From positions 1,956 through 65,955 of the forward strand of contig JAHJJU010000101.1 of the NCBI GenBank assembly GCA_018822805.1: 64,000 nt of DNA, read 5' to 3'. The notes beneath the pieces were generated by a model. The model saw only the letters and a program-made list of their open reading frames with translations. It was not told where the DNA came from and did not search any database. This DNA comes from a bacterium (GTDB lineage Bacteria > Campylobacterota > Campylobacteria > Campylobacterales > Sulfurovaceae). Numbering within the stretch: position 1 is the stretch's first letter; every line of letters begins with the position of its first letter. Both the position numbers and the translations under genes were made by a program. This document shows positions 5,944-50,692 of the stretch, piece by piece.

Positions 5944-6586
5944 ATCCCACCCCTCGAATGGTCGTGATTGTCTCTTCACCTAAGAGTCGTCGTAAGTTCT
6001 TAATGTACGTCCGAATGGTGGCTGGTGTTGGGGATGTCTCGTACGACCAAACATTGACCATCAGCTCATCATTAGAGATAACTTTGGCTCGATTATGTAA
6101 AAAATAAGCTAAAAACTCTCCCTCTTTTTTAGAGAGTTTCTCCTCTTTGGCCCCCAAATAAAGCAAGTACTTAGCACTATCGTAACGCACCTCATCTTTA
6201 ATCTGAATAAGCGATGATTCATCTATTTTAAAATGCCGTCTGATGTTCTCTATACGGGCTTTTAACTCTATCATCTCAAAAGGTTTTTTAAGATAATCAT
6301 CTGCCCCCAATGCAAAACCTTTTTCAACGTTTTGTGGCGTGTTCATGGAGGTTATAAAGATAACAGGGGTCAAATTATTAGAAGCACGTAACTCTTTAAT
6401 CAGTTCAAATCCATTAAGTAAAGGAACATTGACATCCAAAAGCAGTAAATCAAACTTCTCTTTATAGACCAGCTCTTCTGCTTCTAAGCCATTAAAAACA
6501 GGCGTGACGTTATAGTTATAATATTCAAGATGTTCTACGATAACTTCGCTTAATATCGGGTCATCTTCTAGGAGGAGTATTTTCAT
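5930..6586 (-). CDS. OmpR-family response regulator
   Basis: MKILLLEDD, LLLDV, GADDYLKKPF and C-terminal TIRGVGY winged helix. Confidence 0.93.
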   Translation of the reverse strand: MKILLLEDDPILSEVIVEHLEYYNYNVTPVFNGLEAEELVYKEKFDLLLLDVNVPLLNGFELIKELRASNNLTPVIFITSMNTPQNVEKGFALGADDYLKKPFEMIELKARIENIRRHFKIDESSLIQIKDEVRYDSAKYLLYLGAKEEKLSKKEGEFLAYFLHNRAKVISNDELMVNVWSYETSPTPATIRTYIKNLRRLLGEETITTIRGVGYVFN

Positions 6587-6654
6587 AAAGTATGATAGAG
6601 TTTTTGACCTATAAAGTCAAGCCCTCTATCTTTGTTGTGCAGTCTATTAAAGTG

Positions 6655-7161
6655 TTATATATCTAACTTAATACCGAAAGTATAATTTTTAGTATCCATT
6701 TTACTGGTATCTATACTATTAATATCAAATTCTTTACCGTAATCCGTATAACCCACAAAAAGTGCGATGTTGTCATTATAATGATAGTTCGCTTCTAAAC
6801 CATAGGTAAACTCTGTTGATGAATCTGAAACAGTCTGTACCGTATCTTTAACAGTAAAATCTCCATCAGCTTTTGTTAAACCAGCTTTTGGTGTAATAGA
6901 AAAAGAAGAAGTCAATGGCAATGTATACGTTGCGAACAATCCATAACGACTGATGTCTTCTTTTGAAAACTCAGCATGTTCTGAAATATTTTTAGTGTAT
7001 TCTAGTCGCAAACCAATGTTTCCTAACACATTAATTCCTGCAAAACCGGTGGCAAAATTACCCTCTTCGTCACCCTGAGAATAGCCCAAACCAACCTGTG
7101 CAAAACTTCCTGCCATAGCCAAACCACCGGCTAAAACCAAACTCATTATTATTTTTTTCAT
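6655..7161 (-). CDS. Outer-membrane beta-barrel protein (OmpA-like TM domain)
   Basis: Signal peptide, alternating amphipathic beta strands, FTYGLEANY and YTFGIKLDI ends. Confidence 0.7.
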   Translation of the reverse strand: MKKIIMSLVLAGGLAMAGSFAQVGLGYSQGDEEGNFATGFAGINVLGNIGLRLEYTKNISEHAEFSKEDISRYGLFATYTLPLTSSFSITPKAGLTKADGDFTVKDTVQTVSDSSTEFTYGLEANYHYNDNIALFVGYTDYGKEFDINSIDTSKMDTKNYTFGIKLDI

Positions 7162-7332
7162 AATTGCTCCTTAATTGTTAAAGATTAATTATAGAGTAAA
7201 TTGATTTAAGGGGTTATGATTAAGGAAACATTTTTAAATTTGTTTGATTTAAACTTCAACTACAATTCAGGATTAAGTCTAGCTATACTATAGTATTGCT
7301 TCATAAAAATAAAATTTTTAAGGTAAAATAAA

Positions 7333-8172
7333 ATGATTGAAGTCTTTAATGCCGTCTCCAATATTGCAGTACATATAGAAAAAGATGTTTTTCAAAGTTG
7401 CACAGATTTTTTAGATACAACAAAATCAGATGAAGCAATTCACCATGATGTTTATGAACATTGTAGAAGAATTATAGAGAGTGAGTTTGAAAAAGTCAAA
7501 AGCGTTAAAGGGGCTATGGGAAAAGACAAAAAACAATTTTGTACCATCAACAGTGAAGGGAAATACCTTGTCTCTTATGTTGCTGTTGACAATATAGAAC
7601 TTTTAGATGTTGACTTTTCACTCGGTTCCATGTTTGCCATCTATGAAAATGAATTTAATGCTGCATCATTAAAAGCTTCTATCTACATTACCTATGGACC
7701 AACCTTTCAAGTAGTTTTTGCCTCAAAGGAGGAAGGTGTTAAATTCTTCTCTTACAAACATGGTGAATTGGTACAAAAAGACTCTTTTGCACTTGAACAA
7801 AAAGGTAAAATTAACTCAACATCCGGTATTCAATCACAATGGAGTCCAAAACACAAAGCGTTAATAAAAAGCTTTTTTGATGAAGGCTACCGATTACGAT
7901 TTAGTGACAGCTTAACCCTTGATACCCACCAAATACTCTTTAAAAAAGGGGGTATTTACTCTTCACCTGCAGCAACATCCCATCCTAATGGGATAGTGGA
8001 ACTCCTCTTTGAAGCGTACCCTATTGCCTTTATTATGGAGTTGGTCAATGGAGAAGCCATCGATGGAGAGCAAAGAATTCTTGATATCGAATGTACAGAG
8101 TTTCATCAGAAAACACCGATCTATTTTGGTTCAAAATATGAGATTCAACGGGTTAGAGAATTTTTAAAGTAA
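7333..8172 (+). CDS. fbp: Class 1 fructose-1,6-bisphosphatase homologue with degenerate catalytic motifs
   Basis: Scaffold motifs GKYLVSY, LGSMFAIY, YGPT, EGYRLR, HQILFKKGGIYS, LFEAYP, TPIYFGS; DPLDGS reads VAVDNI. Confidence 0.8.
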   Translation: MIEVFNAVSNIAVHIEKDVFQSCTDFLDTTKSDEAIHHDVYEHCRRIIESEFEKVKSVKGAMGKDKKQFCTINSEGKYLVSYVAVDNIELLDVDFSLGSMFAIYENEFNAASLKASIYITYGPTFQVVFASKEEGVKFFSYKHGELVQKDSFALEQKGKINSTSGIQSQWSPKHKALIKSFFDEGYRLRFSDSLTLDTHQILFKKGGIYSSPAATSHPNGIVELLFEAYPIAFIMELVNGEAIDGEQRILDIECTEFHQKTPIYFGSKYEIQRVREFLK

Positions 8173-9898: not shown

Positions 9899-10864
9899 CT
9901 ACGCTATCATATTCTTAGCTAAATTGGTTAAATGATTTTTTATTTGATATCTATTTGAATTGACATAATCGATGCTAACAAATTCAAATTTTGACGCTTT
10001 ATAGACCACCACCACTCCCTCTTTAAAATCATTATTTAACAATTGATCTACAGCATACGTTACAAACTCTATTGCCATCAGTCTGTCATGTACGGTTGGG
10101 TTTCCACCCCTTTGTGTATGCCCTAATATGGTAGCTCGTGTTTCAATACCAACATCCTCTTCGAGCCACTTAACAATATTTTTTGTCTGTTTGGTTCCTT
10201 CGGCTACAATAGCAACAATATAGCGTCGTCCATTTTTCATCTGATTTTTTAATTTTTTTTCTAAACTCTTTAAATTATAAGGCAACTCAGGAATAATACA
10301 TACTTCTGCACCACAAGTTATGGCTGAAACCAAAGCCAAATAGCCACAATCTCTGCCCATCGTTTCAATAACACAGCCTCTTTTAAATGAAGCTGAGGTA
10401 TCTCTTATGGCATCGCTTGCACTCCGTATCATATTTAAAGCCGTATCCACACCAAGGCAATAATCGGTTCCAAATATATCATTGTCTATGGTCGCAGGAA
10501 TACCCACAAACGGCACAGAAAAATCTTTATAAAACTGGTCTAATGCTCTAAAGGAACCATCGCCACCCAAGATGACCAATTTATCAATACCATGTTCTTT
10601 TAGATTGTTATAGGCTTGTTCTCGGTAGTCATACTCAAAAAACCGTTTTGAGCGTGAAGACCGTATTTTTGTACCTCCTTCATGCATGATTCCTGCCACA
10701 TCAGCATGAAAAGCTTTTTTTATATCCCCATCAATTAAACCTTCTAATCCGTCATAAATAAGATAGGGTTGAATATTTTTATAAAAACAGTAATCTACAA
10801 AATGTTTGATAGCAGGATTCATACCTGCACAATCTCCACCGGATGTCAAAATAGCAATAGACAT
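9899..10864 (-). CDS. pfkA: ATP-dependent 6-phosphofructokinase
   Basis: TSGGDCAGMN, GGDGS, PATIDND, ETMGRDCG and LGHTQRGG motifs; start set at MSIAIL. Confidence 0.92.
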   Translation of the reverse strand: MSIAILTSGGDCAGMNPAIKHFVDYCFYKNIQPYLIYDGLEGLIDGDIKKAFHADVAGIMHEGGTKIRSSRSKRFFEYDYREQAYNNLKEHGIDKLVILGGDGSFRALDQFYKDFSVPFVGIPATIDNDIFGTDYCLGVDTALNMIRSASDAIRDTSASFKRGCVIETMGRDCGYLALVSAITCGAEVCIIPELPYNLKSLEKKLKNQMKNGRRYIVAIVAEGTKQTKNIVKWLEEDVGIETRATILGHTQRGGNPTVHDRLMAIEFVTYAVDQLLNNDFKEGVVVVYKASKFEFVSIDYVNSNRYQIKNHLTNLAKNMIA

Positions 10865-11023
10865 GACTTGTAACCTTTTTTTTTTCAAATTATACTATAA
10901 TTAATTATGTTGCCTTATAATAGACAGCAAATAAGAGTAGTGTTAAACTTAATTATGCTATTCTATTATTTAAGTTTTTCTTAAATAATAAAAATAATTT
11001 TAAAATACAAGGAAATTAAGTAA

Positions 11024-12664
11024 ATGTCACTACACCCATACCCATTTCATAAAGATTATAGCAAACCCATTGCCTATTTTTCAATGGAATTCGCCATACA
11101 CCAAGCACTAAAAATATATTCAGGTGGACTTGGATTTTTAGCAGGTTCGCACATGAGAAGTGCTTATGATTTAAAACAAAACATCATCGGTGTGGGAATA
11201 CTTTGGAGTTATGGTTATTACGATCAAGCCAGAGATGAACATAGAAATTTAAAAATAGAGTTTAGACGAAAACATTACTATTTTTTAGAAGATTTAAATA
11301 TTAAAGTAAGTGTCCAAGTGAATGGTAAACCTGTTACAGTCAAAGCCTTTATGCTTCCTGCTGAAACATTTGGTTCAGCACCCCTTATTTTATTGTCAAC
11401 AGATGTTGAAGAAAATGATTATTTATCAAGAACCATTACGCATAAACTCTATGATACCCATGAAGAGACAAGAATCGCTCAAGAAATTGTATTGGGTATA
11501 GGAGGAGTTAAAGTACTTGAAGCACTGGATCATAAAGTTGATATTTATCACATGAATGAAGGTCATGCCCTACCTATGGCATTTGAACTTTATCATAAAT
11601 ATCCAAAATTAAATGCCATAAAAGAGCGCATTCGATTTACAACCCATACGCCGGAAGCTGCCGGAAATGAAATTCATGACATACATCTGTTACAGAAAAT
11701 GGGATTTTTTAACTCTATAGATTTAGAAAAAGTACGAGAACTGACACAAACATATGATGATAATTTTAGTTTAACTGTTGGAGCATTAAGGGTTGCAAAA
11801 ATTGCTAATGCTGTATCGGAAATACATGCTAAAGTAGCGAACAGTATGTGGAATGAGTATCAAAATATTTGTAAAATTATTGCTATAACCAATGCACAAA
11901 ACAAACGCTATTGGGCAGATAAATCCATGTTAAAAGCATTGGAAGAAAATAATAATGCTGAACTGATAGCTAGAAAAAAACACCTTAAACGGGCACTCTT
12001 TAATACCGTAGCCAATCAAACAGGAAAAATGTTTCATCATGATGTTTTAACCATTGTATGGGCAAGAAGATTTGCTGAATATAAACGTCCTGGATTATTA
12101 AAATATGATTTTGAAAGATTTAAAACCTTAATCAATAACACAAAACAACCTGTACAAATCATTTGGGCCGGAAAACCTTACCCTTTTGATACCAATGCGA
12201 TTAATATTTTTAATGAACTTACCTATATCGCTAGAGGTTTTAAAAATATAGCCGTATTAATTGGCTATGAACTTGAACTCTCAATGACCTTAAAAAAAGG
12301 GTGTGATGTTTGGCTCAATACTCCACGCATTACCAGAGAAGCGAGTGGAACAAGTGGTATGACTGCTGCCATGAATGGAGCCATTAACTTCTCCATTGCT
12401 GATGGATGGCACCCTGAGTTTTGTAAAGATAAAATTAACAGTTTCACCATTTTAGGAGCCGATGCTTCCCTTAGTATTGAAGAGCAAGATAAAAATGACA
12501 ATAAAAGCATGATGGACATCCTTGAAAATGAGATTATCCCTACCTATTATAACGATCAAGAAAAATGGATCAATCTAATGAAAAACTCTATGAATGATGT
12601 ATTGTCTCAATTTGACTCGGGTTCAATGGCAGATCAATACTATAAAAAAATGTATACAATTTAA
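11024..12664 (+). CDS. glgP: Short (546 aa) alpha-glucan phosphorylase, GT35 family
   Basis: YFSMEF, YSGGLGFLAG, HMNEGH, FTTHTP, WARRFAEYKR and EASGTSGM motifs; Thr where the PLP lysine normally sits. Confidence 0.88.
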   Translation: MSLHPYPFHKDYSKPIAYFSMEFAIHQALKIYSGGLGFLAGSHMRSAYDLKQNIIGVGILWSYGYYDQARDEHRNLKIEFRRKHYYFLEDLNIKVSVQVNGKPVTVKAFMLPAETFGSAPLILLSTDVEENDYLSRTITHKLYDTHEETRIAQEIVLGIGGVKVLEALDHKVDIYHMNEGHALPMAFELYHKYPKLNAIKERIRFTTHTPEAAGNEIHDIHLLQKMGFFNSIDLEKVRELTQTYDDNFSLTVGALRVAKIANAVSEIHAKVANSMWNEYQNICKIIAITNAQNKRYWADKSMLKALEENNNAELIARKKHLKRALFNTVANQTGKMFHHDVLTIVWARRFAEYKRPGLLKYDFERFKTLINNTKQPVQIIWAGKPYPFDTNAINIFNELTYIARGFKNIAVLIGYELELSMTLKKGCDVWLNTPRITREASGTSGMTAAMNGAINFSIADGWHPEFCKDKINSFTILGADASLSIEEQDKNDNKSMMDILENEIIPTYYNDQEKWINLMKNSMNDVLSQFDSGSMADQYYKKMYTI

Positions 12665-12671
12665 AAGGATC

Positions 12672-13886
12672 ATGATGTTAAGCAATATAGAGTTCATGCA
12701 AAAAGTACAATCGTTAAAACAGATAGATATAAAAGACAAACGCGTTTTAATCAGAGTTGATTTTAATGTGCCTATGGATTCCCATCATGTTATTACCGAT
12801 GATATACGAATCAAAGAAGCACTTCATACCATTAATTACTGTATTGACCATCAAGCCAAATCCATTGTTTTGGTCACCCATTTAGGGCGACCAAAAGGGA
12901 AAGCCAATGATGACTTCTCTTTAAGACACATCATCAAAAGAGTAGAAAGACTTTTAAATAAAAAAGTGACCTTTATAGAAGATTTTATTAATCATAAAGA
13001 TCGTATTTTAGAAAGCAATGAAGGTGAAATTTTTTTATTGGAAAATATACGATTTTATGAGGGTGAAACCAATAATGATGAGACACTCTCCAAAGAGTTG
13101 GCATCCCTATGTGATATATTTGTCAATGATGCCTTTGGTACCAGTCATAGAGCGCATAGTTCAACGGTAGGAATTACAAAATTTGTCCAGACCAATGTGG
13201 CAGGATTCTTACTTAAAAGAGAGATAGATGCCTTTGCAAAAGCACTCTTTAAACCCGTCGCACCCGTATGTTTGGTCATAGGTGGGGCGAAGGTCTCTTC
13301 TAAAATCACCCTATTAAACAATATTATTCCCAAAGTCAATAAGATTATTATAGGAGGAGCCATGAGCAATACCTTTTTAAAAGCCTTGGGCAATGAAATG
13401 CAAAACTCTTTGGTTGAAGATGAGTATCTAGAAGAAGCTCTTAAAATTTTAAACTCTGCAAAACAAGCCAAAGTGAATATCTATCTTCCTGTTGATGTCG
13501 TTATTACCGACAATATTGACCACCCTATTGATACCAAAATCGTACCTGTTCAAGATATTTTAGAAACGTTTACAGCTGTAGACATTGGTCCGGCTACTGT
13601 TAAACTTTTTGAAGAAGCGATTGGACTGTCAAATACCATTGTATGGAATGGACCTATGGGAATTTTTGAGATTGATCGATTTTCAAAAGGCACCTATAGG
13701 ATAGCACATGCCATTGCTGATACTTATGCCTACAGTATTGTTGGTGGAGGCGATACAGCCAGTGCTGCTGATAAAGCTGGAGAAAAAGAGAACATAAGCT
13801 TTATATCAACCGGTGGTGGAGCCAGTCTGGAGCTTCTTGAAGGAAAGATACTTCCGGGATTTGAAAACCTTCAAAAAATCTCATAA
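12672..13886 (+). CDS. pgk: Phosphoglycerate kinase
   Basis: RVDFNVP, THLGRP, LLENIRF, NDAFGTSHRAH, VWNGPMG, GGGDT, STGGGASLE; start after RBS AAAGGA. Confidence 0.96.
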   Translation: MMLSNIEFMQKVQSLKQIDIKDKRVLIRVDFNVPMDSHHVITDDIRIKEALHTINYCIDHQAKSIVLVTHLGRPKGKANDDFSLRHIIKRVERLLNKKVTFIEDFINHKDRILESNEGEIFLLENIRFYEGETNNDETLSKELASLCDIFVNDAFGTSHRAHSSTVGITKFVQTNVAGFLLKREIDAFAKALFKPVAPVCLVIGGAKVSSKITLLNNIIPKVNKIIIGGAMSNTFLKALGNEMQNSLVEDEYLEEALKILNSAKQAKVNIYLPVDVVITDNIDHPIDTKIVPVQDILETFTAVDIGPATVKLFEEAIGLSNTIVWNGPMGIFEIDRFSKGTYRIAHAIADTYAYSIVGGGDTASAADKAGEKENISFISTGGGASLELLEGKILPGFENLQKIS

Positions 13887-13986
13887 AGATTAAAAAACAC
13901 TGTTATTGAATTGTAATTTAAAAAAGATAGAGTTAATAAAAAGTTCCTTTGAAACATTGAGAACTTTTTCTAAATAAGGAGTATGT

Positions 13987-14565
13987 ATGTATATAAAATA
14001 TGTGGGAGAGAAACCTACAATATCACAGCATGGTGTAACGTTTAATCATGCCAAAGAAGATAAATATGTTTATCTAAAAGGTGCCATTCATATACTCCAT
14101 CTCATTGACCCAAAACATAAAAAAGAGTTTGACAATAACATACCCGATAATGAAATTTCAATCATCCTTCAAGAGTATGAGCCAAATATCGAAATAAACA
14201 TTCAAAAAGAGGAACTAAAATATGAAAAAAAACTACAACATGAGATAAAAAATGTTCAACAGAACAATACTTTAAAAGAGATCGAAAAAGAGGTTTGGAT
14301 AAAGAATATAAAATTAATGCAATCCTACAGAATACAAAGAAGCATTAATAAAATTTATTATGAACACGCTATAAAAATCATTGAAAAAGTTATTAAAAAA
14401 GAACAAATTACCAAAATTGTTCTTCCCTTTGATAAATACTATTTTCATCTCTTAAAAAGTATCAAAAGTAAATTAGAAATCGGTCGAAGCTATCTTGATA
14501 GTGATATCAAAATTGAAATGGATCATGACCTCATGATATTAGAATTTAATATAAAGGTAAATTAA
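13987..14565 (+). CDS. Hypothetical protein
   Basis: 192-aa ORF with RBS AAGGAG and genome-like composition; no motif recognised. Confidence 0.65.
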   Translation: MYIKYVGEKPTISQHGVTFNHAKEDKYVYLKGAIHILHLIDPKHKKEFDNNIPDNEISIILQEYEPNIEINIQKEELKYEKKLQHEIKNVQQNNTLKEIEKEVWIKNIKLMQSYRIQRSINKIYYEHAIKIIEKVIKKEQITKIVLPFDKYYFHLLKSIKSKLEIGRSYLDSDIKIEMDHDLMILEFNIKVN

Positions 14566-14567
14566 AA

Positions 14568-15944
14568 GTGAAAAACAAAAAAACAAATATAGTCACAACA
14601 GATATATTGATAATAGGTGCAGGACCTGCCGGAATGGTGGCTGCTATGACAGCGATGCAACATAACCCAAACAAACAGATAACGGTTATACGTTCCTATG
14701 AAAAAAGTCAAGTCCCTTGTGGTATACCCTATGTTTTTGGTACAACATTGGGTTCTGTAGAAAAAAATGCCATGGCTTGTGGAGGTAACCCGGCTGCTGA
14801 TAAAATTGAAAAAATTATAGACACGGTTACCGGTGTTGATATAGAAAAGAAAATGGTAACAGCACTCAATCATAGCATCAACTTTGATAAACTTATTTTT
14901 GCTACAGGTTCAATCCCTTTTGTACATAAAAACTTTCAAGATACAATCAATCTTGACAATGTATTTACCATCAGAAAAGAGTATCATGAAGTTGAAAAAC
15001 TTAAAAATTATTTAGAAAACAGACAAAAAATAATTGTCATTGGTGCTGGTTTTATTGGTGTAGAGATGGCTACAGAGCTTATAAGTAAAGGTAAAGAGGT
15101 GATCCTTGTAAGTGGTGGTCATGTATTGGCCGACTCGTTTGATGAAGATATGGCGCTTAAAGCAGAAGAGATTGTCAAAAACCTTGGAGTTAAATTGGCT
15201 CTAGGGCAACATGCAAATCATATAACACACAAAGATGAAATGGCAACAGGAGTTGAACTCTGTGATGGAACAACTTTAGATGCTGATGTCATTATTTTAG
15301 CAACAGGCTACGAACCCAATACTAGGCTAGCAGCAGAAGCAGGGCTTAAATTGGCTCGATATAAAGGTATCTGGGTTGATGAATACATGAGAACAAGAAA
15401 TAAAGATATTTTTGCCGTGGGTGATTGTTGTGGAAGAAGAGACTTTATTACAAGAGATCCATCTAAAGTAATGTTAGCATCTACTTCAGCATCAGAAGCT
15501 AGAATAGCAGGAGGTTCTCTTTATAAATTAGAACATCTGAAAGGGTTTGATGGAACCATTGCCATCTTCTCAACCATGATAGGTGACCGTGTGTTTGCCT
15601 CTGCAGGGGTTACAGAACAAAGAGCAACTGATGAAAATATTGACTATGTATCAGGATTTTTTGAAAGTATGAACCGACATCCCGGAACCATTCCTGATGC
15701 TTCAAAACAATCGGTAAAACTCATTGCCATGCGAAGCAGTGGTCAGATTATAGGTGGTCAGGTTATAGGAGATAAAGAAGCAGGAGAAATCATTAATATC
15801 CTCGGATTAGCCATAGAATCTAAGCTAACCGTACATTCACTGATTTCACTACAAGTGGCAACGCAGCCTCTGCTTACCTCAGCACCAACGACCTATCCAA
15901 TTGTTATGGCTGCTCAAGCTGTACTTGCAAACAGTCAAAGGTAA
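14568..15944 (+). CDS. FAD-dependent pyridine nucleotide-disulfide oxidoreductase (NADH oxidase / CoA-disulfide reductase-like)
   Basis: GAGPAG FAD motif, single redox Cys in VPCGIPY, GAGFIGVE NAD(P)H motif, IFAVGDC, dimerisation domain; GTG start. Confidence 0.85.
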   Translation: MKNKKTNIVTTDILIIGAGPAGMVAAMTAMQHNPNKQITVIRSYEKSQVPCGIPYVFGTTLGSVEKNAMACGGNPAADKIEKIIDTVTGVDIEKKMVTALNHSINFDKLIFATGSIPFVHKNFQDTINLDNVFTIRKEYHEVEKLKNYLENRQKIIVIGAGFIGVEMATELISKGKEVILVSGGHVLADSFDEDMALKAEEIVKNLGVKLALGQHANHITHKDEMATGVELCDGTTLDADVIILATGYEPNTRLAAEAGLKLARYKGIWVDEYMRTRNKDIFAVGDCCGRRDFITRDPSKVMLASTSASEARIAGGSLYKLEHLKGFDGTIAIFSTMIGDRVFASAGVTEQRATDENIDYVSGFFESMNRHPGTIPDASKQSVKLIAMRSSGQIIGGQVIGDKEAGEIINILGLAIESKLTVHSLISLQVATQPLLTSAPTTYPIVMAAQAVLANSQR

Positions 15945-15969: not shown

Positions 15970-18900
15970 TTAATAGGGGAACCCTGTTGTCCCGTCTACA
16001 TCCAACGTACTCTTACTTAAAAATGCTCCATAGGTATCATCTGATTTACAGTAGCCATTTGGGGTAGAGACGAAGAACGCTTTAGGTACAGCTGTATAGT
16101 TAAAACTTGCCACTTGATCAGAAGCTTTTTGACTGTACTCTATGCCCATCATGCTTAAATAATCACGGAAATCAAGTCCACTTGCAAAAGAGAAGGAGAC
16201 CAACAACCAGTCATTGTTTCTCATGGCATTAAACTCATCAAGTGTATAAGAATCAAATCCAAGTGAAGCTTTGTTTGCTTCCCAATCAACTTTGGCTTGG
16301 GTTATCTCACGCTCTAAAATATGCAGTCGTGCCAATAAGTGCCAACCATTATCAAGTTTACCCATTTTTTGTGTGTGCATCATTGCTTGAATGGTGACTA
16401 AAACTTGATGTGACCAATTTGAACTTTCCCATAAATTAGTTTTGAGATATTCAGTTGAATTACTTTCAGCTACACTGGATTGAAGCTTTTCAAAGACCTC
16501 TTTAAACGGTAAGTTTTGACAATCAGGCTCACCACCCGTGGTCTCATTGTATTTTGATTTGGTATAATAAGAGTAAGGATTCGTAATTGCATGCAGTTCA
16601 AACCCTTCAAATTTAAAACGTGATTTTTCAAGACCATGACCCAATTCATGTACATCCCCGTGACCTATCGGTGAAAATGCCCAATAGGCATCATAAGGGT
16701 TTCCTGAACAGCCATAACCACAAGTTGCTTGGTCAGCATTCATGTGTTTGACCAAATCTAAATTTTCTATCGTTAAACTGTTTGTCGCTGCAAAGTCATG
16801 AATCTCCTCTACCACATCAATTCCAGGACCTTTAAAACCTGCTAGAACATGAGGAAAATTACTCATATAACGCTGGGTTGCAGCTGCCAATGCCTCTGCT
16901 GTGCCCCATTTAGCATCAGCTACCGATTCACGCATTTTATCTAAAGTAGAGTGAACCTCAAATGCAGAAGTCACTACCTCTGCCCAATCAAAATTTCCTG
17001 CATCAAGTTTTTGGGTAAACGAATCATCATCGGCTGGACTTGCCCAATAAGCGTGTTCTCCTATGTTTTCAAAGGTAAATGAGACGTCTAAATCATTGAT
17101 ATTAAAAGCAATATGCACAGGACCACCATAAGGAGAGGTAAGTTCGATACTCTCTCCTGACCCTATCGTAAACGATGGTGTTTGCAGGAACTTAGGTCGC
17201 TTATAACCATTGCTCTCAAACTCATGGGTTGCTCCTGAACGTAAAGAGTTAATAAAAACTTTGGTTGTAACAGCCGAATTATCATTTCGTGTTACACGCA
17301 TGGTTTGCCCAGGGAGAGCATAGACACCTGTTGAACGGAAGTTCTTTTTGCTGGTCAAATTTACTGTTTTACTGTATGGAGTAATATGAGAAAAGTCACT
17401 TCGGCTAAAATTTCCCATATCTTTTTGAACAGGATTGATAAATCTATAATTATAAACTGCATGGTCACTGTAGTAAGCTTTCATAAACTCATTGTCATCT
17501 GTTGTTGCTTTATCCATGGGGTATGCAACACTCTGTCGGAACCTATCACCAATTAAAACCAAAAGTTTTTGAAGACGATAACCAGTCGATAAAAAAATAT
17601 TTTTCTTACTACCATCTAAACCATTCATCATCTCTCGTACTTTTGTTGCACCTTTTTGAAACTCAGAATTTAACCCTGCTACATCAGCACATTTATCATA
17701 TTGTGAACCGAAAGCTCCGTTACCATCGGTACACTGATTCCAGTCAAAGTTATAGTCTCCATCTTGAAAATGTGTCAACATGGTATCTATCGATGCATAC
17801 CCAAAGCTATTAAAGAGAGCTAATTGCATCTCCTCAATATTTGTCCATAAAGCTGCATCGTTTGCCCAATAGTTTCCTCCGTATGGAAATGAAAATTCAA
17901 ACAGATCAGCAACCACTTGAGACAAACTGTTTTGACCCCAATTATCATGTACGTATAAAATAGATTTGGCTGCAGTTAGCATCTTTGGTAGTACACTACG
18001 CATTGCTTCTGCATCAGCATCTGTACCTGAACGACCTAAAAGAATTAAATCAGCATCACCATAACAACTCTCTAAAGTAGCTTTATCATTACAACTTTTT
18101 AGACTCCAGTTTGGATAGTTTTTTGTTATCCAACGCTCCACAGCACTACTGTCACTTACAAAAGAGAGTGCAACGGTTTTGTCAGTGTTCGTAAGATTCA
18201 TATCGATCGGTTCTTCACCAATCAACCATACAAAGACTCTTTTCATATAGGACTCATACTCCAAGTTTTCATCTCTATCGAAAAAGTAGAGAGGATTAGA
18301 AGCAAAAACAGAAAACCTACCCGCTTCTTTTTGTCCTGCAATAGCCAATACATTGTTCTTATTCCCGTATAAAATAGGGAATGTTTTACTGCCATCTCCA
18401 TACATATTAATAAGTTGAGAGTGATAATTTCCTGAAGTATACGAAATAGAACCATTTTGGTATAGTTGAGACAATAAAGAGTTACCTACTTTTAAACTAC
18501 TGATCTCATCTCTTGCTGCTTGAATTAGCTCCTCTTCGGTAACATTCAGAACAGAACCTGATACAAGTGCTTCTTCAACAGCATTTGCTGTCGTTGCTTG
18601 AATAGTTATTGGTGTTGAGGCACTATTGACTCCATCACTCACAAGCACATCAAAGTGATACTCTTTTCCCCCTAGTGTGCCATTTACCGTAATATTTCCA
18701 TTATTATCAATCGTAAAGGGAACATCGCCCACAATAGAGTAAATTAAACTATCACCTTGATAATCCAAAGCCTCAATAGTTGCTACTTCAGTACCATTGG
18801 CTGTTGTGCCTTGAATTAAATAGTTACTCTCATGAGTTTTAAACTCAGGTCTATCTGACAAAACACCATAAACCTCAACTTCAGCAACATGAAGACAATT

Positions 18901-20745
18901 CGTTCCATCTCCTTTAAGTAGTAAATAGTTCCCCTCTTTCATAGGTGAGTAGTTAAAACTTTGAGCTTCTCCTGAACCGGTCAATGTCTCTATATCATTA
19001 CTTTCTATTAAAGTACCATTGTACTCTTGAGTTCCAAGATACAGTTTTGTTCCGTTTAGTCGTGCTGTTTGTCCACTACGATTATAAACAACCACTTTGG
19101 CTACTTTAGAAAGTTTTGGTAACTCTAATTGCCACCAGTTTTCTGTTTCAGTACATTGCGTATGGTTCCATGTACTCAAATTCCCATCGATAGCATTTTC
19201 AGGAGCATCATAATAATAGTACCCATTTTTTGGAGGTTGTGTTGCTTTGCCATACCGGTGTGCTATCTCCACTTGATTATACTTAACGAGTGCAATTTTG
19301 AGTGCATTGATAATCGTTTCTCGCTCTTCACTGCGTACCTCATAACTCTGTTCAACATGAATAAATCGATGTGAAGAGTTTGAAGCTGCACTACTACAAA
19401 CATTCGATGAACCATTGGTAAACCTAGCTGTCGTATTCATCGTTCCACCAAGTGATGAAGTATAAATATCATCAGCACCACTGTTATTGGCAGGGCTATA
19501 GATACAACTCTTTATAGTGCTGTTATTGGTAATCTCCTCATGAAAAAGATGCATAAAGCTTGAACTATTTAAGTCATCAATACCCTCACTAATATTGATA
19601 ATTTTAGTATTCTGACCACCATCACATTGACTCCATATCGTCTCTCTTGTGGTGTTTCCAAATCCATGAAGTTCTATAAAAAGTGCTTTGTTATCCAATG
19701 TTGAGATTGCTTTATGTACATGAAAAAAAGAGTGTGCAGTATTATGAGAAGCATCACTCTCTTTATAGGAGGATTGACAGCTACTATCTGTTAATGAGCT
19801 TTTTCGATGTGTTCCAGAGATAAGAAGATATCGACTATTTAAGGCTACATATGTCTCTATCCCCTCTTTATCAGTATTGGTATCAAAAACAGGGTGTGGA
19901 ACTTGAATAGCAGAGTTTGTACCTTTAGGATTAAATACATAAGTACCACCCAATGCATGGTAATTCTCATCACTAAAACGCTCCAAGTCAAGATGTAGAA
20001 CATAATAGGCGCTATCACCATCTACTACTTTAAGGAGTTCACCATTGAGTGTTTTTGCTTTAGTATGCGCCTCTATATATTGACGATTTAAAATATCGGT
20101 GACAATGTTACCTACTAAAGCTTGTTGTTCCGTAGTACTGCTCTTCCAGAAATTATCTCCCTCTGTACCAAATTTCATCTTTTGTAAATAGGTTGATAAA
20201 GGTTCCGTTCGTATAGGTAGTTCTTTTACAATACTCTCTTTTTTTGAGATAAAAGGTGTTCCCAGGCTCCCTTTAACCCAATAACCATACCCATTGACCA
20301 GTCCATCAAGATTTGAAACTCCAGCATTTACACCGGTATAAAGTGTATTCCCATTTTGATTTTGAATCTCTTCAAACTGACTCATATCAATATCAGATTG
20401 AGCGATATCTTCACATGCCCCAATGAGACTCCATCCATTTCGTTTTAACGGTTTAACCAATAGACCTTGTGCCTCTCCACTTTCAAATTGGATTCCAGAT
20501 TCACCTTTAACCCAATAAGCATACCCTGCTTCCAAAGTATCTAGATTCGAGTACTCAGACCATTCCCTACCGTATATGGTGGCTCCATCCTGACGCTGAA
20601 TTTCAGAAATATTACTCATATTAACATCTGAACGATTGATATCCTGACAAACAGCAATCAAGTTCCATCCATTTCTTTCTAATGTGGCACTATGACCAAA
20701 CAGTGTTAATATAGCCCCTAAAGTCATTATCCATCTCAATCTCAT
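15970..20745 (-). CDS. Secreted multidomain IMPa-like (M60-like/M88) zinc metalloprotease with F-type-lectin-like and cadherin-like domains
   Basis: Signal peptide; CGYGCSGNPYDAYWAFSPIGHGDVHELGHGLE (HExxH) resembling P. aeruginosa IMPa; AIDGN..HT..WWQLEL..V.VYNR discoidin/F-lectin motif; cadherin-like ALDYQGDSLIYSI..FTID..G.I..VSDG. Confidence 0.8.
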   Translation of the reverse strand: MRLRWIMTLGAILTLFGHSATLERNGWNLIAVCQDINRSDVNMSNISEIQRQDGATIYGREWSEYSNLDTLEAGYAYWVKGESGIQFESGEAQGLLVKPLKRNGWSLIGACEDIAQSDIDMSQFEEIQNQNGNTLYTGVNAGVSNLDGLVNGYGYWVKGSLGTPFISKKESIVKELPIRTEPLSTYLQKMKFGTEGDNFWKSSTTEQQALVGNIVTDILNRQYIEAHTKAKTLNGELLKVVDGDSAYYVLHLDLERFSDENYHALGGTYVFNPKGTNSAIQVPHPVFDTNTDKEGIETYVALNSRYLLISGTHRKSSLTDSSCQSSYKESDASHNTAHSFFHVHKAISTLDNKALFIELHGFGNTTRETIWSQCDGGQNTKIINISEGIDDLNSSSFMHLFHEEITNNSTIKSCIYSPANNSGADDIYTSSLGGTMNTTARFTNGSSNVCSSAASNSSHRFIHVEQSYEVRSEERETIINALKIALVKYNQVEIAHRYGKATQPPKNGYYYYDAPENAIDGNLSTWNHTQCTETENWWQLELPKLSKVAKVVVYNRSGQTARLNGTKLYLGTQEYNGTLIESNDIETLTGSGEAQSFNYSPMKEGNYLLLKGDGTNCLHVAEVEVYGVLSDRPEFKTHESNYLIQGTTANGTEVATIEALDYQGDSLIYSIVGDVPFTIDNNGNITVNGTLGGKEYHFDVLVSDGVNSASTPITIQATTANAVEEALVSGSVLNVTEEELIQAARDEISSLKVGNSLLSQLYQNGSISYTSGNYHSQLINMYGDGSKTFPILYGNKNNVLAIAGQKEAGRFSVFASNPLYFFDRDENLEYESYMKRVFVWLIGEEPIDMNLTNTDKTVALSFVSDSSAVERWITKNYPNWSLKSCNDKATLESCYGDADLILLGRSGTDADAEAMRSVLPKMLTAAKSILYVHDNWGQNSLSQVVADLFEFSFPYGGNYWANDAALWTNIEEMQLALFNSFGYASIDTMLTHFQDGDYNFDWNQCTDGNGAFGSQYDKCADVAGLNSEFQKGATKVREMMNGLDGSKKNIFLSTGYRLQKLLVLIGDRFRQSVAYPMDKATTDDNEFMKAYYSDHAVYNYRFINPVQKDMGNFSRSDFSHITPYSKTVNLTSKKNFRSTGVYALPGQTMRVTRNDNSAVTTKVFINSLRSGATHEFESNGYKRPKFLQTPSFTIGSGESIELTSPYGGPVHIAFNINDLDVSFTFENIGEHAYWASPADDDSFTQKLDAGNFDWAEVVTSAFEVHSTLDKMRESVADAKWGTAEALAAATQRYMSNFPHVLAGFKGPGIDVVEEIHDFAATNSLTIENLDLVKHMNADQATCGYGCSGNPYDAYWAFSPIGHGDVHELGHGLEKSRFKFEGFELHAITNPYSYYTKSKYNETTGGEPDCQNLPFKEVFEKLQSSVAESNSTEYLKTNLWESSNWSHQVLVTIQAMMHTQKMGKLDNGWHLLARLHILEREITQAKVDWEANKASLGFDSYTLDEFNAMRNNDWLLVSFSFASGLDFRDYLSMMGIEYSQKASDQVASFNYTAVPKAFFVSTPNGYCKSDDTYGAFLSKSTLDVDGTTGFPY

Positions 20746-39816: not shown

Positions 39817-40131
39817 TTAATCCATCGCTTTAGCGTGGTATCGTGCATAAGTGAGGGCTTTTTCTAATATCTCTTTGAAAAATAAAAGTTGATTTAAGTC
39901 TTTGGATAAATTTTGAAAATATTGCTCGTAATCATCATTCGATTCTAAGATTGCGTTTAGTGTTTCTAAAAGTTTATTTTCATCTATATCTTTTTTGGAT
40001 TTACAATACACCCACATCGCATAAACCCCATCTTGTGCCAAAACACCTAAGATTTTATTGATAAGATTTTCATCTATAACTTTAGATATTTCATACCCTG
40101 CCTTATTAATTTCTGCATCAAGATTTTTCAT
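39817..40131 (-). CDS. CRISPR type III small subunit (Cas11/Cmr5-like)
   Basis: 104-aa helical protein with LGVLAQDGVYAMW and C-terminal YARYHAKA, directly after cmr4. Confidence 0.72.
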   Translation of the reverse strand: MKNLDAEINKAGYEISKVIDENLINKILGVLAQDGVYAMWVYCKSKKDIDENKLLETLNAILESNDDYEQYFQNLSKDLNQLLFFKEILEKALTYARYHAKAMD

Positions 40132-41116
40132 TTAACGCTCCTAAAATTTTCATCCGTCCAAACCCTCTCGTCGTCATTCCACCAACTCCTAAACTCTCAT
40201 AGTATTGTTTAGAATCATTTAAAGCGTTAAATATATCATCTAAATTTAGCAGACCATTATCTCTTTGAAATCCTCTCACTTCCCCACAAAAAATAGTACC
40301 TCTAGGTATTGCTTCAGAAGTAAACAATGCAGTATCCTTAGCTGCTCCTGTGATGGGGTCGATGGAGACAGAGGTACGCACTTCTAGGTTAGCGTTGATA
40401 ATTTGAGAAATAAGAGAATCGGGTACAATGATGATGTCGTCAAGTTTTAATTTACTACTTTGTAAATCACTATCTTCTAAATTGTGTTGTCTTTGAACTT
40501 CTAAGTTTAACCACCCTAAATTAAGATACTTTTCATCACCTTTAGAGGTTAGTATTTTATTTTCTTGGATTGCTATATCTTTATCTAAAAGCTTTGGTGA
40601 AGTTATCCATTTAACACCCAATCTCGTATAAACAGGGAAAAACAAAATATTCAAATCACTAAAAAAGAGCATTCCTTGATTGGATAAATCTTTTTTGGAA
40701 AATCCAAACGATTTACAAACGATACAATGACCACAGTGACCTAACTTTTCTTTTGACTCTTCTAATGTACTTTCTGCTTCATCATCTTGACCAGCACATT
40801 TAATCGCTGAAAAACGATTACCATTAAAATTTTTCATCCACTCTTTTGGAGCGTTAAAAAGCTCTTGAATGTTCTCTTTTTTCTCTTCTCTTTTTTTTCT
40901 ATCTTGTTTGTACTCATCTTTAAAACTACTTTGCAACTCCAACGCCACATAATATCGCCAAGTTCCTGCCATACTACTACCAGGAATTTTGGGTATGCGA
41001 GTGATGGGGTCTCGTACGATGGTATTATCGACTCTACCAATAGTGAACCCACCTGTACCGATATGAATGGGGTCGATTGCCATTGCTATAATTTTTTTGC
41101 TTTCTACACTGCTCAT
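40118..41116 (-). CDS. cmr4: CRISPR Cas7-group RAMP Cmr4
   Basis: PIHIGTG..RVDNTIVRD..PKIPGSSMAG, RTSVSID, LFTSEAIPRGT and LGVGGMTTRGFG; Cys-rich insertion. Confidence 0.85.
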   Translation of the reverse strand: MSSVESKKIIAMAIDPIHIGTGGFTIGRVDNTIVRDPITRIPKIPGSSMAGTWRYYVALELQSSFKDEYKQDRKKREEKKENIQELFNAPKEWMKNFNGNRFSAIKCAGQDDEAESTLEESKEKLGHCGHCIVCKSFGFSKKDLSNQGMLFFSDLNILFFPVYTRLGVKWITSPKLLDKDIAIQENKILTSKGDEKYLNLGWLNLEVQRQHNLEDSDLQSSKLKLDDIIIVPDSLISQIINANLEVRTSVSIDPITGAAKDTALFTSEAIPRGTIFCGEVRGFQRDNGLLNLDDIFNALNDSKQYYESLGVGGMTTRGFGRMKILGALNEKS

Positions 41117-41118
41117 TG

Positions 41119-43815
41119 TTATATCTCCTTTAGTGTTGTATGATAATATGCGAACATATCAAGAAATTTTGTTATCTCTTTAAAACTACAATCATTTATC
41201 CCAAACTGTAATAACTCGATGTTCTCTTTTTTAAATGTTGTTTTGATAAAGCGTTCAAAGCTATCTTCTTCATCTTTCCAATCCTCCATCTTGCTATAGA
41301 TGAGGCTCACCAGTGTTTGAAGTTGATTGCTTTTGTTGGCAAATTGCTCTTTGAAGCGTTTAAATTGTTCCCACTCTTGCCAACTATAAGGGCGATTGGA
41401 TTTAAGCTCAATCGTTCGTTTACCACTCTTATAAAAAATATCATTTCGCCTACTGTTGGTATCGAGAAATTCAAAATCTATAGTGTTAAGATAAATTGTG
41501 AAGTTATCAGTAGTGTTGTATTTTTTGATTCCTTTACTTGATGGCAAAAGTGAAAAATCATACTCTTGATTATCTGTTTCATAAAGAGAGTAGAAATCTT
41601 GTGAATTATTATTGCTCTCTTTTACATCAAAATAAGAACTCAACTCTTTTAATTTTTCATTTGTACTTATTTCACTCCAATTTTTGACATCTCGGCGTAT
41701 ATTTCGCAAAGCTTTGATACCTACATAAAGAGGTTTTTTATAGTTTTGCACCACCACACCGATATGAAGTGGCAATTTACCATTGACATATTTGAAGTTT
41801 TGATAATAGAGCTTTTGGATTTTGTCGATAGTACACTCTAACTTTTCTGTTGGGATAATAAACTGCCAAGAGATAGGTGTGGGGTCGATGATGGAGAAGT
41901 ATTGTTTGTAAAATTCTTCCTTGATTTGTGATTCTAAATTTGCAAAATCTGGAACTTTTTGTACAAAACCTTTTTTTGTTCTAATTGTTTGAATACTCCC
42001 CAAAACATCATTTTTCACCTCATCAAAAAATCCTTCTGTACTCTCCCACACTCTTCGTAGCCTTGCAGGTGATGGGTTTTTTCGTAGGAGGAATTGTAAA
42101 ACTATTTTAGATAAAAAATTAAATTCATCATCAGTTAAAGTATCCCATTCAATTATTCTATTTTGAAAGTTAATTTTATTATTTACACCATCTTTGAGAA
42201 AATTTTCATAAATTGTGCCTATGGCTCTTTCGATAAACCAAGTTTCTACAACTTTTCTTAGTGGTTGATTAACTGGAATATTTTCACTGTAATTTTTGAT
42301 ATATAAAGTGTCATTTAATTCCTTGGCATCTTTTAATACAGCATAAATATCATTTACATAATCCTGATATCTTAATTGAGTCAAATCCAACTGTTGTCCC
42401 AATAAACTACTAAGTAAACTACCATTTAACCACTCAATAAGTTCAAATTTCAAAGTAACCATTGCTACACGGTTATTTTTATCAGCTAATTCACCTATCC
42501 AAATTGTTTCACCATCTTGTTTATTAAGCCACTTCTCAACTCGTCCTTGTTTTCTATTTTGGCAAATCTCGCACATAGGTATATCATCATTTGTTTTAGT
42601 TGCAAATCTACTTTGACAAACTTGGCAAATACCTATTGCATCTTCAATCTCATTGGGATTTTCTTTTTTTGAATAATCGGCTTTTAGGAAGTTTTCTTTA
42701 GCTTTTTCTAAAAAAGTAGTTAAATTCATTGTGGCTCGAGTAGGCTTACTTAAAAGAATCGCAGGATAAAATTCATCATTGGTAGTAGTATGAAAAATAT
42801 CTAAAATCTTATTTTTTATTTCATCTAAATCTGTATGCAGTTCATAAAAATCTCCATTTTCAACACCTTTTAAATTTTCGGAAACTAAAAAGTAAATCCC
42901 TGTTTCATCTCTATAAACTTCATTACCTAAAGCATATTTATTTTCAATCAAATTTTTTAATTTCAAATCAATTATTTTAGTCATTTTTCGATAAGTTTGA
43001 ATATGAGCAGGTTTGAGTCCTTTTTCTGCTAAAGAGAGTTTATCGTATTGGATTGCTAATATGCTCCAATTTATTTTTGATAAGTCATAATTATTGGTAT
43101 TGATTGGTTGTAAGTAAACTCCTGCTAAAAGTGCTTTGAACATTGAAGTTGCCATATAGGCTTGATCCCAAAGGGTTGTATCGTTGAGTGGAAATCTCGT
43201 ATCAGATGGTAAGTTTTTGTAAAGATTCTCAATAATGCTTAGAATTTTCTTTCTATCACTATAAAAATTAAAATCCGTTGTAGATAGCCTATTGAGTAGA
43301 ATGGTAATATCATTTGTATAAAGATTACGAGCTTCATCAAATAAATTGGGATTAGCCGTAGATTTAAAAGAACCAAAACTATTACTAAGCCAAGAATAAT
43401 CTCCTATAATTTGTTCTTTTGGACTTCCCTTTTCTATACCAGAATTTAACCCCTCGGAAGCACCGTAGAGTTTTTGTAAAATTTTTAATTGACTTGTAAT
43501 TTGATGAGGATTATTCCCTCTCCATTTTCGCCAATCTTTAAAAAAGTGTTGCCATAGATTTATTTCATTTTGATTTTGAGTATAGTTTGTCATTAATTTG
43601 GAAACATCTATTTTAATATTTTGAAAAGTAGTTTCTAAAATACTCTTTATTTCTTGATTTTGATTCTCATATAAAGCTGTTTCACAACTAAAATATCCAT
43701 TCTTTTTCCACCAACTCAAAAAAGTTTTTTCAATCAAAAATAGCAAACTCCCAATCTCAGCCTTTAAAATCTCATCTTTATTATCTGTTAAATCATTTAC
43801 ATTCATTTTTATCAC
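41119..43815 (-). CDS. cas10: Cas10-family large subunit (Csx11/III-C type) with no HD and no GGDD motif
   Basis: SDTRFPLNDTTLWDQAYM, LGNEVYRDETGIYF, CQVC..CEIC zinc finger, KNPSPARLRRVW, GKLPLHIG and DFEFLDT motifs of Csx11-like proteins. Confidence 0.82.
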   Translation of the reverse strand: MIKMNVNDLTDNKDEILKAEIGSLLFLIEKTFLSWWKKNGYFSCETALYENQNQEIKSILETTFQNIKIDVSKLMTNYTQNQNEINLWQHFFKDWRKWRGNNPHQITSQLKILQKLYGASEGLNSGIEKGSPKEQIIGDYSWLSNSFGSFKSTANPNLFDEARNLYTNDITILLNRLSTTDFNFYSDRKKILSIIENLYKNLPSDTRFPLNDTTLWDQAYMATSMFKALLAGVYLQPINTNNYDLSKINWSILAIQYDKLSLAEKGLKPAHIQTYRKMTKIIDLKLKNLIENKYALGNEVYRDETGIYFLVSENLKGVENGDFYELHTDLDEIKNKILDIFHTTTNDEFYPAILLSKPTRATMNLTTFLEKAKENFLKADYSKKENPNEIEDAIGICQVCQSRFATKTNDDIPMCEICQNRKQGRVEKWLNKQDGETIWIGELADKNNRVAMVTLKFELIEWLNGSLLSSLLGQQLDLTQLRYQDYVNDIYAVLKDAKELNDTLYIKNYSENIPVNQPLRKVVETWFIERAIGTIYENFLKDGVNNKINFQNRIIEWDTLTDDEFNFLSKIVLQFLLRKNPSPARLRRVWESTEGFFDEVKNDVLGSIQTIRTKKGFVQKVPDFANLESQIKEEFYKQYFSIIDPTPISWQFIIPTEKLECTIDKIQKLYYQNFKYVNGKLPLHIGVVVQNYKKPLYVGIKALRNIRRDVKNWSEISTNEKLKELSSYFDVKESNNNSQDFYSLYETDNQEYDFSLLPSSKGIKKYNTTDNFTIYLNTIDFEFLDTNSRRNDIFYKSGKRTIELKSNRPYSWQEWEQFKRFKEQFANKSNQLQTLVSLIYSKMEDWKDEEDSFERFIKTTFKKENIELLQFGINDCSFKEITKFLDMFAYYHTTLKEI

Positions 43816-50287: not shown

Positions 50288-50692
50288 ATGAGAGTTGTCA
50301 CAGGTGTGGTAGGGAATGATATTCATGTGGTCGCCAATCGGCTCATAGAAATTTCCCTCAAAGAGAGAGGGTTTGAGGTATTTAATTTAGGGGTTAACAC
50401 CTATCTTGAAGAGTTTATCGATGCCGTAATAGAGACCGATGCTGATGTACTGCTCATCTCATCGCTCAATGGTGAAGCTGAAGGGTGGTCACGTGATTTG
50501 CTGTTTTTGAAAAGCCGTTTTGATTTGGATGGCGTGCTTTTTGCCATTGGGGGGAACCTGAGTGTGGGTGAAGCAACCAGTGAAGAGATTGTTCCAAAAT
50601 ACAAAGCCTATGGCTACGATTTGGTCTTTCATCAAGTTGATTTGAACACAGGAATTGATACCATAGAAGAAGTCTTAAAGGAGAGAGCATAA
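50288..50692 (+). CDS. glmS: Glutamate (methylaspartate) mutase B12-binding S subunit
   Basis: DIHVVA (DxHxxG variant), ISSLNG and GGNL cobalamin-binding motifs; overlaps the next gene. Confidence 0.85.
   Translation: MRVVTGVVGNDIHVVANRLIEISLKERGFEVFNLGVNTYLEEFIDAVIETDADVLLISSLNGEAEGWSRDLLFLKSRFDLDGVLFAIGGNLSVGEATSEEIVPKYKAYGYDLVFHQVDLNTGIDTIEEVLKERA

Follow-up and report, generated by a model that had tools for sequence, protein, structure and literature searches.

Can an alpha-glucan phosphorylase dispense with the lysine that carries its cofactor? To our knowledge, pyridoxal 5'-phosphate (PLP) has for decades been regarded as obligatory for every enzyme of this kind. The question is raised by one gene in the window analysed here, a stretch of 64,000 nucleotides of a Sulfurovaceae genome (contig JAHJJU010000101.1) that is AT-rich (G+C 35%) and originates from a biofilm metagenome. 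The gene encodes a homologue of the GT35 alpha-glucan phosphorylases in which a threonine, Thr447, stands at the position of the PLP Schiff-base lysine. A sequence-only reading of the locus had proposed a short subfamily that binds PLP non-covalently, works without it, or catalyses a different glucan reaction. We find that the substitution is genuine and that it marks a single bacterial clade, and we argue that phosphorolysis without PLP is the probable consequence.

A threonine at the position of the cofactor lysine

The protein is clearly a phosphorylase homologue. It scores 444.4 bits against TIGR02094 (NCBIfam, "alpha-glucan family phosphorylase"; cut-off 191.7) and 56.2 bits against PF00343 (Pfam; cut-off 27), and matches NF041129 (NCBIfam, Thermococcales maltodextrin phosphorylase) with 344 bits in two stretches, where the equivalog cut-off is 1500. 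An AlphaFold2 model built from an alignment of 24 clade members (predicted local distance difference test score 92.7, predicted template-modelling score 0.91) predicts a GT-B fold of two Rossmann domains that superposes on solved phosphorylases. Indeed, all 50 Foldseek matches listed for the model are phosphorylases, led by structures 20YR and 9L6I of the Segatella copri glycogen phosphorylase (GP; E ~1e-44, query-normalised TM-score 0.90-0.91). This enzyme is also the best solved relative by sequence (E ~4e-65). The alignment spans residues 109 to 710 of its 852, leaving the window's protein without some 100 N-terminal and 140 C-terminal residues; it is a bare catalytic core that lacks the N-terminal regulatory region.

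Alignment to solved phosphorylases places Thr447 in the column of the Schiff-base lysine, the GNMK lysine of the classical-type Dorea longicatena GP and Lys609 of S. copri GP (the lysine of EASGTSGEK in 9L6I). Lys609 carries PLP in the S. copri enzyme, in which R507, R508 and K513 are catalytic (PMC12912991). Around Thr447 the motif is kept, with E439, S441, G442, T443, S444 and G445 as in PLP enzymes. In classical enzymes this EASGT loop and the start of the following helix hold the 5'-phosphate of PLP. The sequence-only reading had given the motif as EASGTSGM-T-AAMNG with an ACT codon at the critical position, an intact RRFAEYKR and a length of 546 residues, and it was exact in each respect.

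Could the threonine be an error? ACT differs from AAA and AAG at two nucleotide positions, so two changes would be needed to give lysine. An independent sequencing run on that biofilm sample gave a Logan contig (word depth ~367) that is identical over 11410-12664. Moreover, the closest 120 database homologues (68-100% identity; those named are Arcobacter, Halarcobacter, Sulfurimonas, Sulfurovum and unclassified Campylobacterota) have serine (102) or threonine (18) at this position. Together with an intact open reading frame (ORF) and an AAGGA ribosome-binding site at 11010-11014, the ATG following 9 nt further downstream, these observations rule out, for all practical purposes, both a sequencing or assembly error and a decaying pseudogene.

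A clade that lost the lysine

We examined the best 150 matches to the protein in a library of representatives clustered at 50% identity. Among these, every full-length representative above ~38% identity to the protein has S, T, G or A at position 447, and lysine returns below that level. The column holds lysine in all 115 lysine-bearing representatives and S, T, G or A in all 26 representatives of the protein's own clade, and because the counts for lysine are 115/115 and 0/26 the pattern is beyond chance.

The tree agrees. We built a neighbour-joining tree from 141 near-full-length sequences (135 representatives, the protein itself and five close homologues). The 26 lysine-less sequences fall in one clade with a single lysine-bearing sequence nested among them, and the longest branch of the tree sets this clade apart from the 114 other sequences. 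The split was recovered in 60/60 bootstraps with the lysine column excluded. The proposed short subfamily is thus supported: loss of the Schiff-base lysine to S, T, G or A marks one clade, in which all 120 of the closest homologues have serine or threonine. Since the lysine is present in the classical family as well as in the remainder of TIGR02094, one loss at the base of the clade would be the most parsimonious history.

The nested lysine-bearing sequence, P0205 (551 aa, from a Logan assembly), reads EASGTSGMKA--NG, with a two-residue deletion. Position 42 is Asp, as in enzymes of the lysine type, but positions 293 and 463 follow the clade and K424 is missing. The sequence may represent a reversion or an intermediate state.

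The clade is widely distributed. In a one-genome-per-species collection at least 600 stretches match the lysine-less motif, all of them confirmed relatives. Taxonomy was taken from the best 80 of these at least 600 matches, which include Campylobacterota (Arcobacteraceae, the nearest at 80% identity, Sulfurovum, Sulfurimonas, Sulfuricurvum, Sulfurospirillum, Nitratifractor and Nitratiruptor), Bacteroidota (Pontibacter, Rhodocytophaga, Dawidia, Sediminibacterium and many metagenome-assembled genomes of Cytophagales and Chitinophagaceae) and Desulfurellales. Further members, found through cluster look-ups and a profile search, come from Vampirovibrionales and from many lineages of the Patescibacteria, or candidate phyla radiation (CPR), including Sungbacteria, Paceibacterota, Spechtbacteria, Niyogibacteria and Nealsonbacteria. 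Overall identity across these phyla is ~33-50%.

What has happened to the active site? To find out, we set 23 lysine-less sequences against 115 lysine-bearing ones, one alignment column at a time. Residues invariant or nearly so in both groups are E22, G34-G37, Q68, N131, Y143, H176, N178-E179, H208-T209-P210, N262, S265, H268, T289-N290, W297, R348-R349, Y353-K354-R355, G383-K384, Y415, D428, W430, N432, E439-G445, D460-G461 and E465. They cover the ligand motifs (the GGLG loop, HTP, TN, RR..YKR, GK, EASGTSG and DGW.E), and by alignment this set of more than 40 positions is that of the glucosyl and substrate-phosphate binders of solved phosphorylases. It includes the equivalents of rabbit K568, K574 and T676, of the helix start at 677 and of the glycine loop, which hold the PLP 5'-phosphate in classical enzymes; the equivalences follow from the alignment to solved phosphorylases and established numbering. 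The active site is conserved across the clade, which therefore argues for a working enzyme.

Other positions changed together with the lysine. D42, H293, W463, G345, A385 and G24 are 83-99% conserved in the lysine-bearing relatives and are lost along with K447 (Table 1); the replacements G345V, F346W, A385P and G24A accompany the loss, and K424, Y66, P385, N397 and F474 are new invariants of the clade. Position 38, directly after GGLG, is aromatic in the subclade of Campylobacterota and Bacteroidota, and V or I in lysine-bearing relatives. R348, K354, T443 and G35 of the 5'-phosphate subsite are kept; D42, H293 and W463 are lost, and the aromatic F38, G24A, G345V and F346W are gained. At the level of sequence, abandonment and partial filling of the pyridoxal ring site, with the anion subsite and the catalytic machinery retained, would leave such a pattern.

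We also asked whether another lysine might take over. K424 is the only clade-specific invariant lysine in the comparison. The AlphaFold2 model places it close to the C terminus of helix 417-426, a helix that begins at Y415, a residue of the crevice, and leads off from the crevice. Judged by the topology of the Rossmann fold, not by coordinates, this distal end would face away from the ligand crevice, making K424 an unlikely Schiff-base lysine. By similar reasoning K318, on the long inter-domain helix 311-333, seems unable to reach the pocket. The nearby substitute lysine for which the sequence-only reading had allowed is thus not apparent.

Phosphorolysis without PLP and its rivals

A precedent comes from the Archaea. 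In the phosphorylases of Methanococcales a threonine, sometimes a serine, replaces the Schiff-base lysine (10.1101/2024.09.29.615707, a 2024 preprint). The recombinant enzyme of Methanococcus maripaludis (MmGP) is a ~60 kDa monomer that phosphorolyses glycogen at ordinary rates and yields glucose-1-phosphate from glycogen and phosphate alone. Four methods (absorbance, fluorescence, cyanohydrin assay and mass spectrometry) detected no PLP in it. It is modulated by ADP-glucose, UDP-glucose, ADP and pyrophosphate. In modelling, its 5'-phosphate subsite was conserved, Phe26 filled the pyridoxal pocket, and there was space for a second, catalytic phosphate (10.1101/2024.09.29.615707). A phosphorylated Ser or Thr447 as a covalent substitute for the PLP phosphate is unlikely, because some members of the bacterial clade have Gly or Ala at this position, and MmGP was unmodified by mass spectrometry (10.1101/2024.09.29.615707).

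We consider it probable that the protein encoded in the window works as an alpha-1,4-glucan (glycogen/maltodextrin) phosphorylase independently of PLP, that a free anion occupies its 5'-phosphate subsite, and that it feeds Pgm, Pgi, PfkA and Pgk. Phosphorolysis is favoured because of the gene context and the retained catalytic residues; operation without PLP is favoured because of the M. maripaludis precedent. The sequence itself, the make-up of the clade, the fold and the gene neighbourhood are shown here; beyond them we infer activity, absence of PLP and a two-phosphate mechanism of the following kind. Within the TIGR02094 branch of GT35, a minimal GT-B core would have kept the glucosyl, substrate-phosphate and PLP-5'-phosphate subsites, and loss of the Schiff-base lysine with its co-occurring residues would have remodelled the pyridoxal pocket. 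By analogy with MmGP, the conserved 5'-phosphate subsite would then probably take up a further free phosphate, or some other anion, to serve as acid/base. Glucose-1-phosphate freed from stored glycogen would pass through Pgm, Pgi, PfkA and Pgk into glycolysis.

The gene is flanked by pfkA, which is divergent, and pgk (Table 1); a fructose-1,6-bisphosphatase-like gene and ppsA are also nearby. The tight spacing to pgk, with an AAGGA site abutting the phosphorylase stop, makes co-transcription of the two genes probable. The pgk ORF as delimited mechanically begins at 12594, within the phosphorylase gene; the ATG in Table 1 is its likely true start. A scan of 10700-14700 for promoters and terminators was uninformative (22 sites against 20.1 in shuffled sequence, and 2 against 1.8). 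The adjacency of phosphorylase and pgk recurs in three related loci (L001, L007 and L024), and fbp lies near the lysine-less gene in two (L003 and L007). No further glycogen genes were found in the rest of the 64-kb window.

Related loci supply them. Across 34 related Campylobacterota loci and two of Desulfurellales, the latter adding one GlgA locus, the neighbours of the lysine-less gene are GH57 (15 loci), a fusion of nucleotidyltransferase and phosphohexomutase (13), GlgA (12), Pgm (10), Pgi (9), GlgB (8), PfkA (6, adjacent) and Pgk (4). True GlgA genes adjoin the lysine-less gene in such loci, and in most Campylobacterota clusters it is the sole phosphorylase in the DNA fetched around it. 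A glucokinase-like ORF of the ROK type lies immediately upstream in several loci, and in a marine member of the Bacteroidota the lysine-less gene is downstream of a GT5-type synthase and an isoamylase-like gene. Phosphate-dependent release of glucose-1-phosphate would fit this context of glgA, glgB, pgm, pgi, glk, pfkA and pgk.

Two of these neighbours deserve a description of their own. The ROK-type ORF ends at or overlaps the phosphorylase start in L002:5255-5992, L021:5112-5942, L025:4150-4998, L032:4744-5595, L050:5235-6002 and L074:698-1465, and is in frame with the lysine-less gene in L015; it was assigned by eye from the zinc motif CGCG..C.E, not by a profile. The fusion protein (834 aa; L024:6061-8565 and 12 other Campylobacterota loci) joins a sugar-phosphate nucleotidyltransferase (PF00483 with a left-handed beta-helix) to a phosphogluco/phosphomannomutase domain and adjoins GH57. 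It may be a fused two-step route to a nucleoside diphosphate (NDP)-glucose donor.

Several observations weigh against PLP-free phosphorolysis. One glycogen cluster of an uncultured Campylobacteraceae (L027) encodes both a lysine-bearing GP (7-1143) and a lysine-less one (6001-7644), in the order GP(K), Pgm, Pgi, GP(lysine-less), nucleotidyltransferase/phosphohexomutase, GH57. The lysine-bearing paralogue reads EACGTSGMKAAVNG and has the hallmarks NGVH, GFARR, GKAHP and DGWW. Because this paralogue sits beside it, the role of the lysine-less enzyme may have become differentiated in this locus, and the two types could have distinct functions. The genes of Cytophagales, Chitinophagales and CPR are not clustered with glycogen genes; in two CPR genomes the neighbours are housekeeping genes only. 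Furthermore, the MmGP precedent is a preprint, and no Methanococcales were recognised among the best 150 representatives, many of which are unnamed.

The alternative that survives best, although we rate it as rather unlikely, is that the vacated pocket holds a nucleotide or another phospho-ligand and that the enzyme catalyses a different glucan reaction: NDP-glucose-dependent glucosyl transfer, nucleotide-assisted phosphorolysis or a glucanotransferase reaction, for example. In GT-B relatives the place of PLP is taken by the nucleoside monophosphate (NMP) moiety of the sugar donor, which PLP is believed to have replaced during evolution (Chem Rev 2024, PMC11046441). The modulation of MmGP by nucleotides and nucleotide sugars fits this idea, as does the lysine-bearing GP beside the lysine-less one in L027. 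The protein also has weak matches to models of GT5 starch/glycogen synthases. These matches are, however, far under the cut-offs and place the protein outside the GT5 (GlgA) family (PF08323, 18.1 bits, cut-off 22.7; NF001899, 14.9 bits, cut-off 459), and a lysine-bearing relative, P0211, gives the same weak GT5 match. Most Campylobacterota clusters already have GlgA, with no other phosphorylase in the fetched DNA, and the substrate-phosphate ligands are all conserved. Moreover, MmGP releases glucose-1-phosphate when given only glycogen and phosphate (10.1101/2024.09.29.615707).

A bolder form of this idea, which we likewise rate as rather unlikely, is that the bacterial clade did not simply copy the archaeal second-phosphate solution and uses a nucleotide or phospho-metabolite as a dissociable cofactor or co-substrate in the ancestral NMP site. 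If so, it would be a GT35 enzyme with an activity or chemistry set by the cellular nucleotide pool. In a milder version the bacterial clade may have lost PLP independently of Methanococcales. Methanococcales GP was not returned by searches with the protein, with a distant lysine-less profile or with a short lysine-bearing profile, nor by cluster look-ups, many matches being unnamed; the searches aimed at it brought up Campylobacterota, CPR, Bathyarchaeia and Nitrospinota. If truly absent from the best 150, the Methanococcales enzymes may be more distant from the protein than many lysine-bearing enzymes are, and independent loss is possible because they would then score below those enzymes. Independent loss would mean that PLP is repeatedly dispensable in phosphorylases.

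Could PLP still be bound, without a Schiff base? Phosphorylase chemistry does not need the aldimine itself. PLP, or another B6 vitamer phosphate, might be held non-covalently, as the 5'-phosphate holders R348, K354, T443, the helix start at 444 and G35 are kept, together with the ring-flanking W297 and Y415. Nevertheless we find this unlikely: the near-invariant D42, H293 and W463 were lost with the lysine, G24A, G345V and F346W add bulk, and the archaeal Lys-to-Thr enzyme was negative for PLP by four methods (10.1101/2024.09.29.615707).

A non-catalytic glucan-binding or regulatory pseudoenzyme is very unlikely, even though a residue held to be essential in all classical members is gone, since more than 40 active-site positions are (near-)invariant across phyla at ~33-50% overall identity, the gene has an operon-like placement with catabolic genes, and the archaeal Lys-to-Thr enzyme is active (10.1101/2024.09.29.615707). 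Of the three mechanisms put forward by the sequence-only reading, phosphorolysis without PLP is therefore favoured on gene context and the MmGP precedent, but sequence does not separate them.

The window and known phosphorylases

Coordinates of the phosphorylase gene, its diagnostic residues and its neighbours are collected in Table 1.

Table 1. Features in and around the lysine-less phosphorylase gene (window coordinates).
Feature	Position	Strand	Remarks
Fructose-1,6-bisphosphatase-like gene	7333-8172	+	PF18913
pfkA (6-phosphofructokinase)	9899-10888	-	PF00365, 334 bits; divergent, 135-bp intergenic region to the phosphorylase gene
Lysine-less GT35 alpha-glucan phosphorylase homologue gene	11024-12664	+	ATG start; 546 aa; sole long ORF at the locus
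GGLG glycine loop, G34-G37	11123-11134	+	Conserved; F38 next
Ser42	11147-11149	+	Asp in 114/115 lysine-bearing sequences; S/G/A in the lysine-less clade, D in 3/23
Asn293	11900-11902	+	His in 108/115 lysine-bearing sequences (TNGVH); D/N/S in the lysine-less clade
RRFAEYKR, R348-R355	12065-12088	+	R348/R349/K354 align with S. copri R507/R508/K513, substrate-phosphate ligands
Lys424	12293-12295	+	Invariant in 23/23 lysine-less sequences; Lys in 0/115 lysine-bearing sequences
Motif EASGTSGMTAAMNG	12338-12379	+	Residues 439-452; loop 433-443, then helix 444-449 in the AlphaFold2 model
Thr447, codon ACT	12362-12364	+	Position of the PLP Schiff-base lysine, by alignment to solved phosphorylases
His463	12410-12412	+	Trp in 106/115 lysine-bearing sequences (DGWW); M/I/H/A in the lysine-less clade
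pgk (phosphoglycerate kinase)	12672-13886	+	ATG 7 nt past the phosphorylase stop; AAGGA abuts that stop

The window holds other features of note. A CRISPR array at 46242-~50100 consists of a 30-nt repeat, ATTTGAATTTGCCCTTTTAGGGTTTGAAAC, present 59 times and separated by spacers of ~35-38 nt, and beside it on the minus strand (40118-43815) are type III cas genes, among them Csx11 (TIGR02682, 527 bits) and a Cmr4/Csm3-like RAMP protein. The minus strand also encodes (15970-20745) a 1591-aa protein, unusual in a Campylobacterota-like genome, with an IMPa-type (M60-like) metalloprotease N-terminal domain, helical domains and F5/8 type C (discoidin) domains. On the plus strand, 50692-56992 carries in a row a methylaspartate-mutase-E-like gene (374 bits, slightly below the equivalog cut-off of 390), a sensor kinase, a GlmL-like gene and an exosortase-type acyl-CoA ligase.

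What does the clade mean for the family? The sole reported exception to PLP dependence was presented as a peculiarity of Methanococcales: the authors of that work sampled bacteria only from groups already studied, called the substitution an evolutionary novelty of Methanococcales and asked why such a change had not arisen in other phosphorylases (10.1101/2024.09.29.615707). The gene described here comes from a large bacterial clade that is strongly supported and shares this loss; the clade spans Campylobacterota of vents and sediments, Bacteroidota of soil and water, and the cofactor-poor Patescibacteria. If its members are active without PLP, cofactor-free phosphorolysis would be common and ancient rather than a curiosity. 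The co-varying residues D42, H293, W463, K424 and others are targets for learning how the PLP phosphate is replaced. There is also a consequence for annotation, in that lysine-less genes are labelled as ordinary alpha-glucan phosphorylases and are counted as PLP-dependent in surveys of cofactor demand.

The sequence-only reading had reckoned with the subfamily being characterised already, which is true in part. A PLP-free Lys-to-Thr GT35 enzyme is already known from the 2024 preprint; the bacterial clade and its wide distribution appear unreported, and a literature search for a bacterial lysine-less GT35 enzyme, or for a glycogen phosphorylase in Sulfurimonas, found nothing relevant.

Among known systems, the classical GPs (rabbit muscle GP, E. 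coli GlgP and MalP; TIGR02093) share the GT-B fold and the retaining phosphorolysis machinery with the protein, and their KR..YKR and EASGT..M motifs align with it, at ~15-17% identity. They differ in having ~800 residues, regulatory N-terminal domains and obligatory PLP on Lys680 (rabbit numbering). The Thermococcales maltodextrin phosphorylase (NF041129) and other TIGR02094 enzymes are of the same hidden Markov model family as the protein, but have ~700-830 residues and carry PLP on a conserved lysine. S. copri GP (a clade 2 GP; 9L6I, 20YR; PNAS 2026, PMC12912991) is closer still: its R507, R508 and K513 and its EASGTSG loop align residue by residue. That enzyme has a helical region at its N terminus and a beta-sheet domain at its C terminus, forms AMP-regulated pentamers and decamers and binds PLP on Lys609, whereas the shorter protein of the window has Thr447 and lacks D42, H293 and W463.

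It is MmGP that the protein resembles in its defining features, as far as these can be read from sequence. Both belong to the same broad, non-classical branch of GT35, are short, lack the N-terminal regulatory region and have threonine in place of the Schiff-base lysine. MmGP keeps the substrate and 5'-phosphate subsites and has an altered pyridoxal pocket; the aligned residues suggest the same for the protein of the window. MmGP is archaeal, from the Methanococcales; the protein described here is bacterial.

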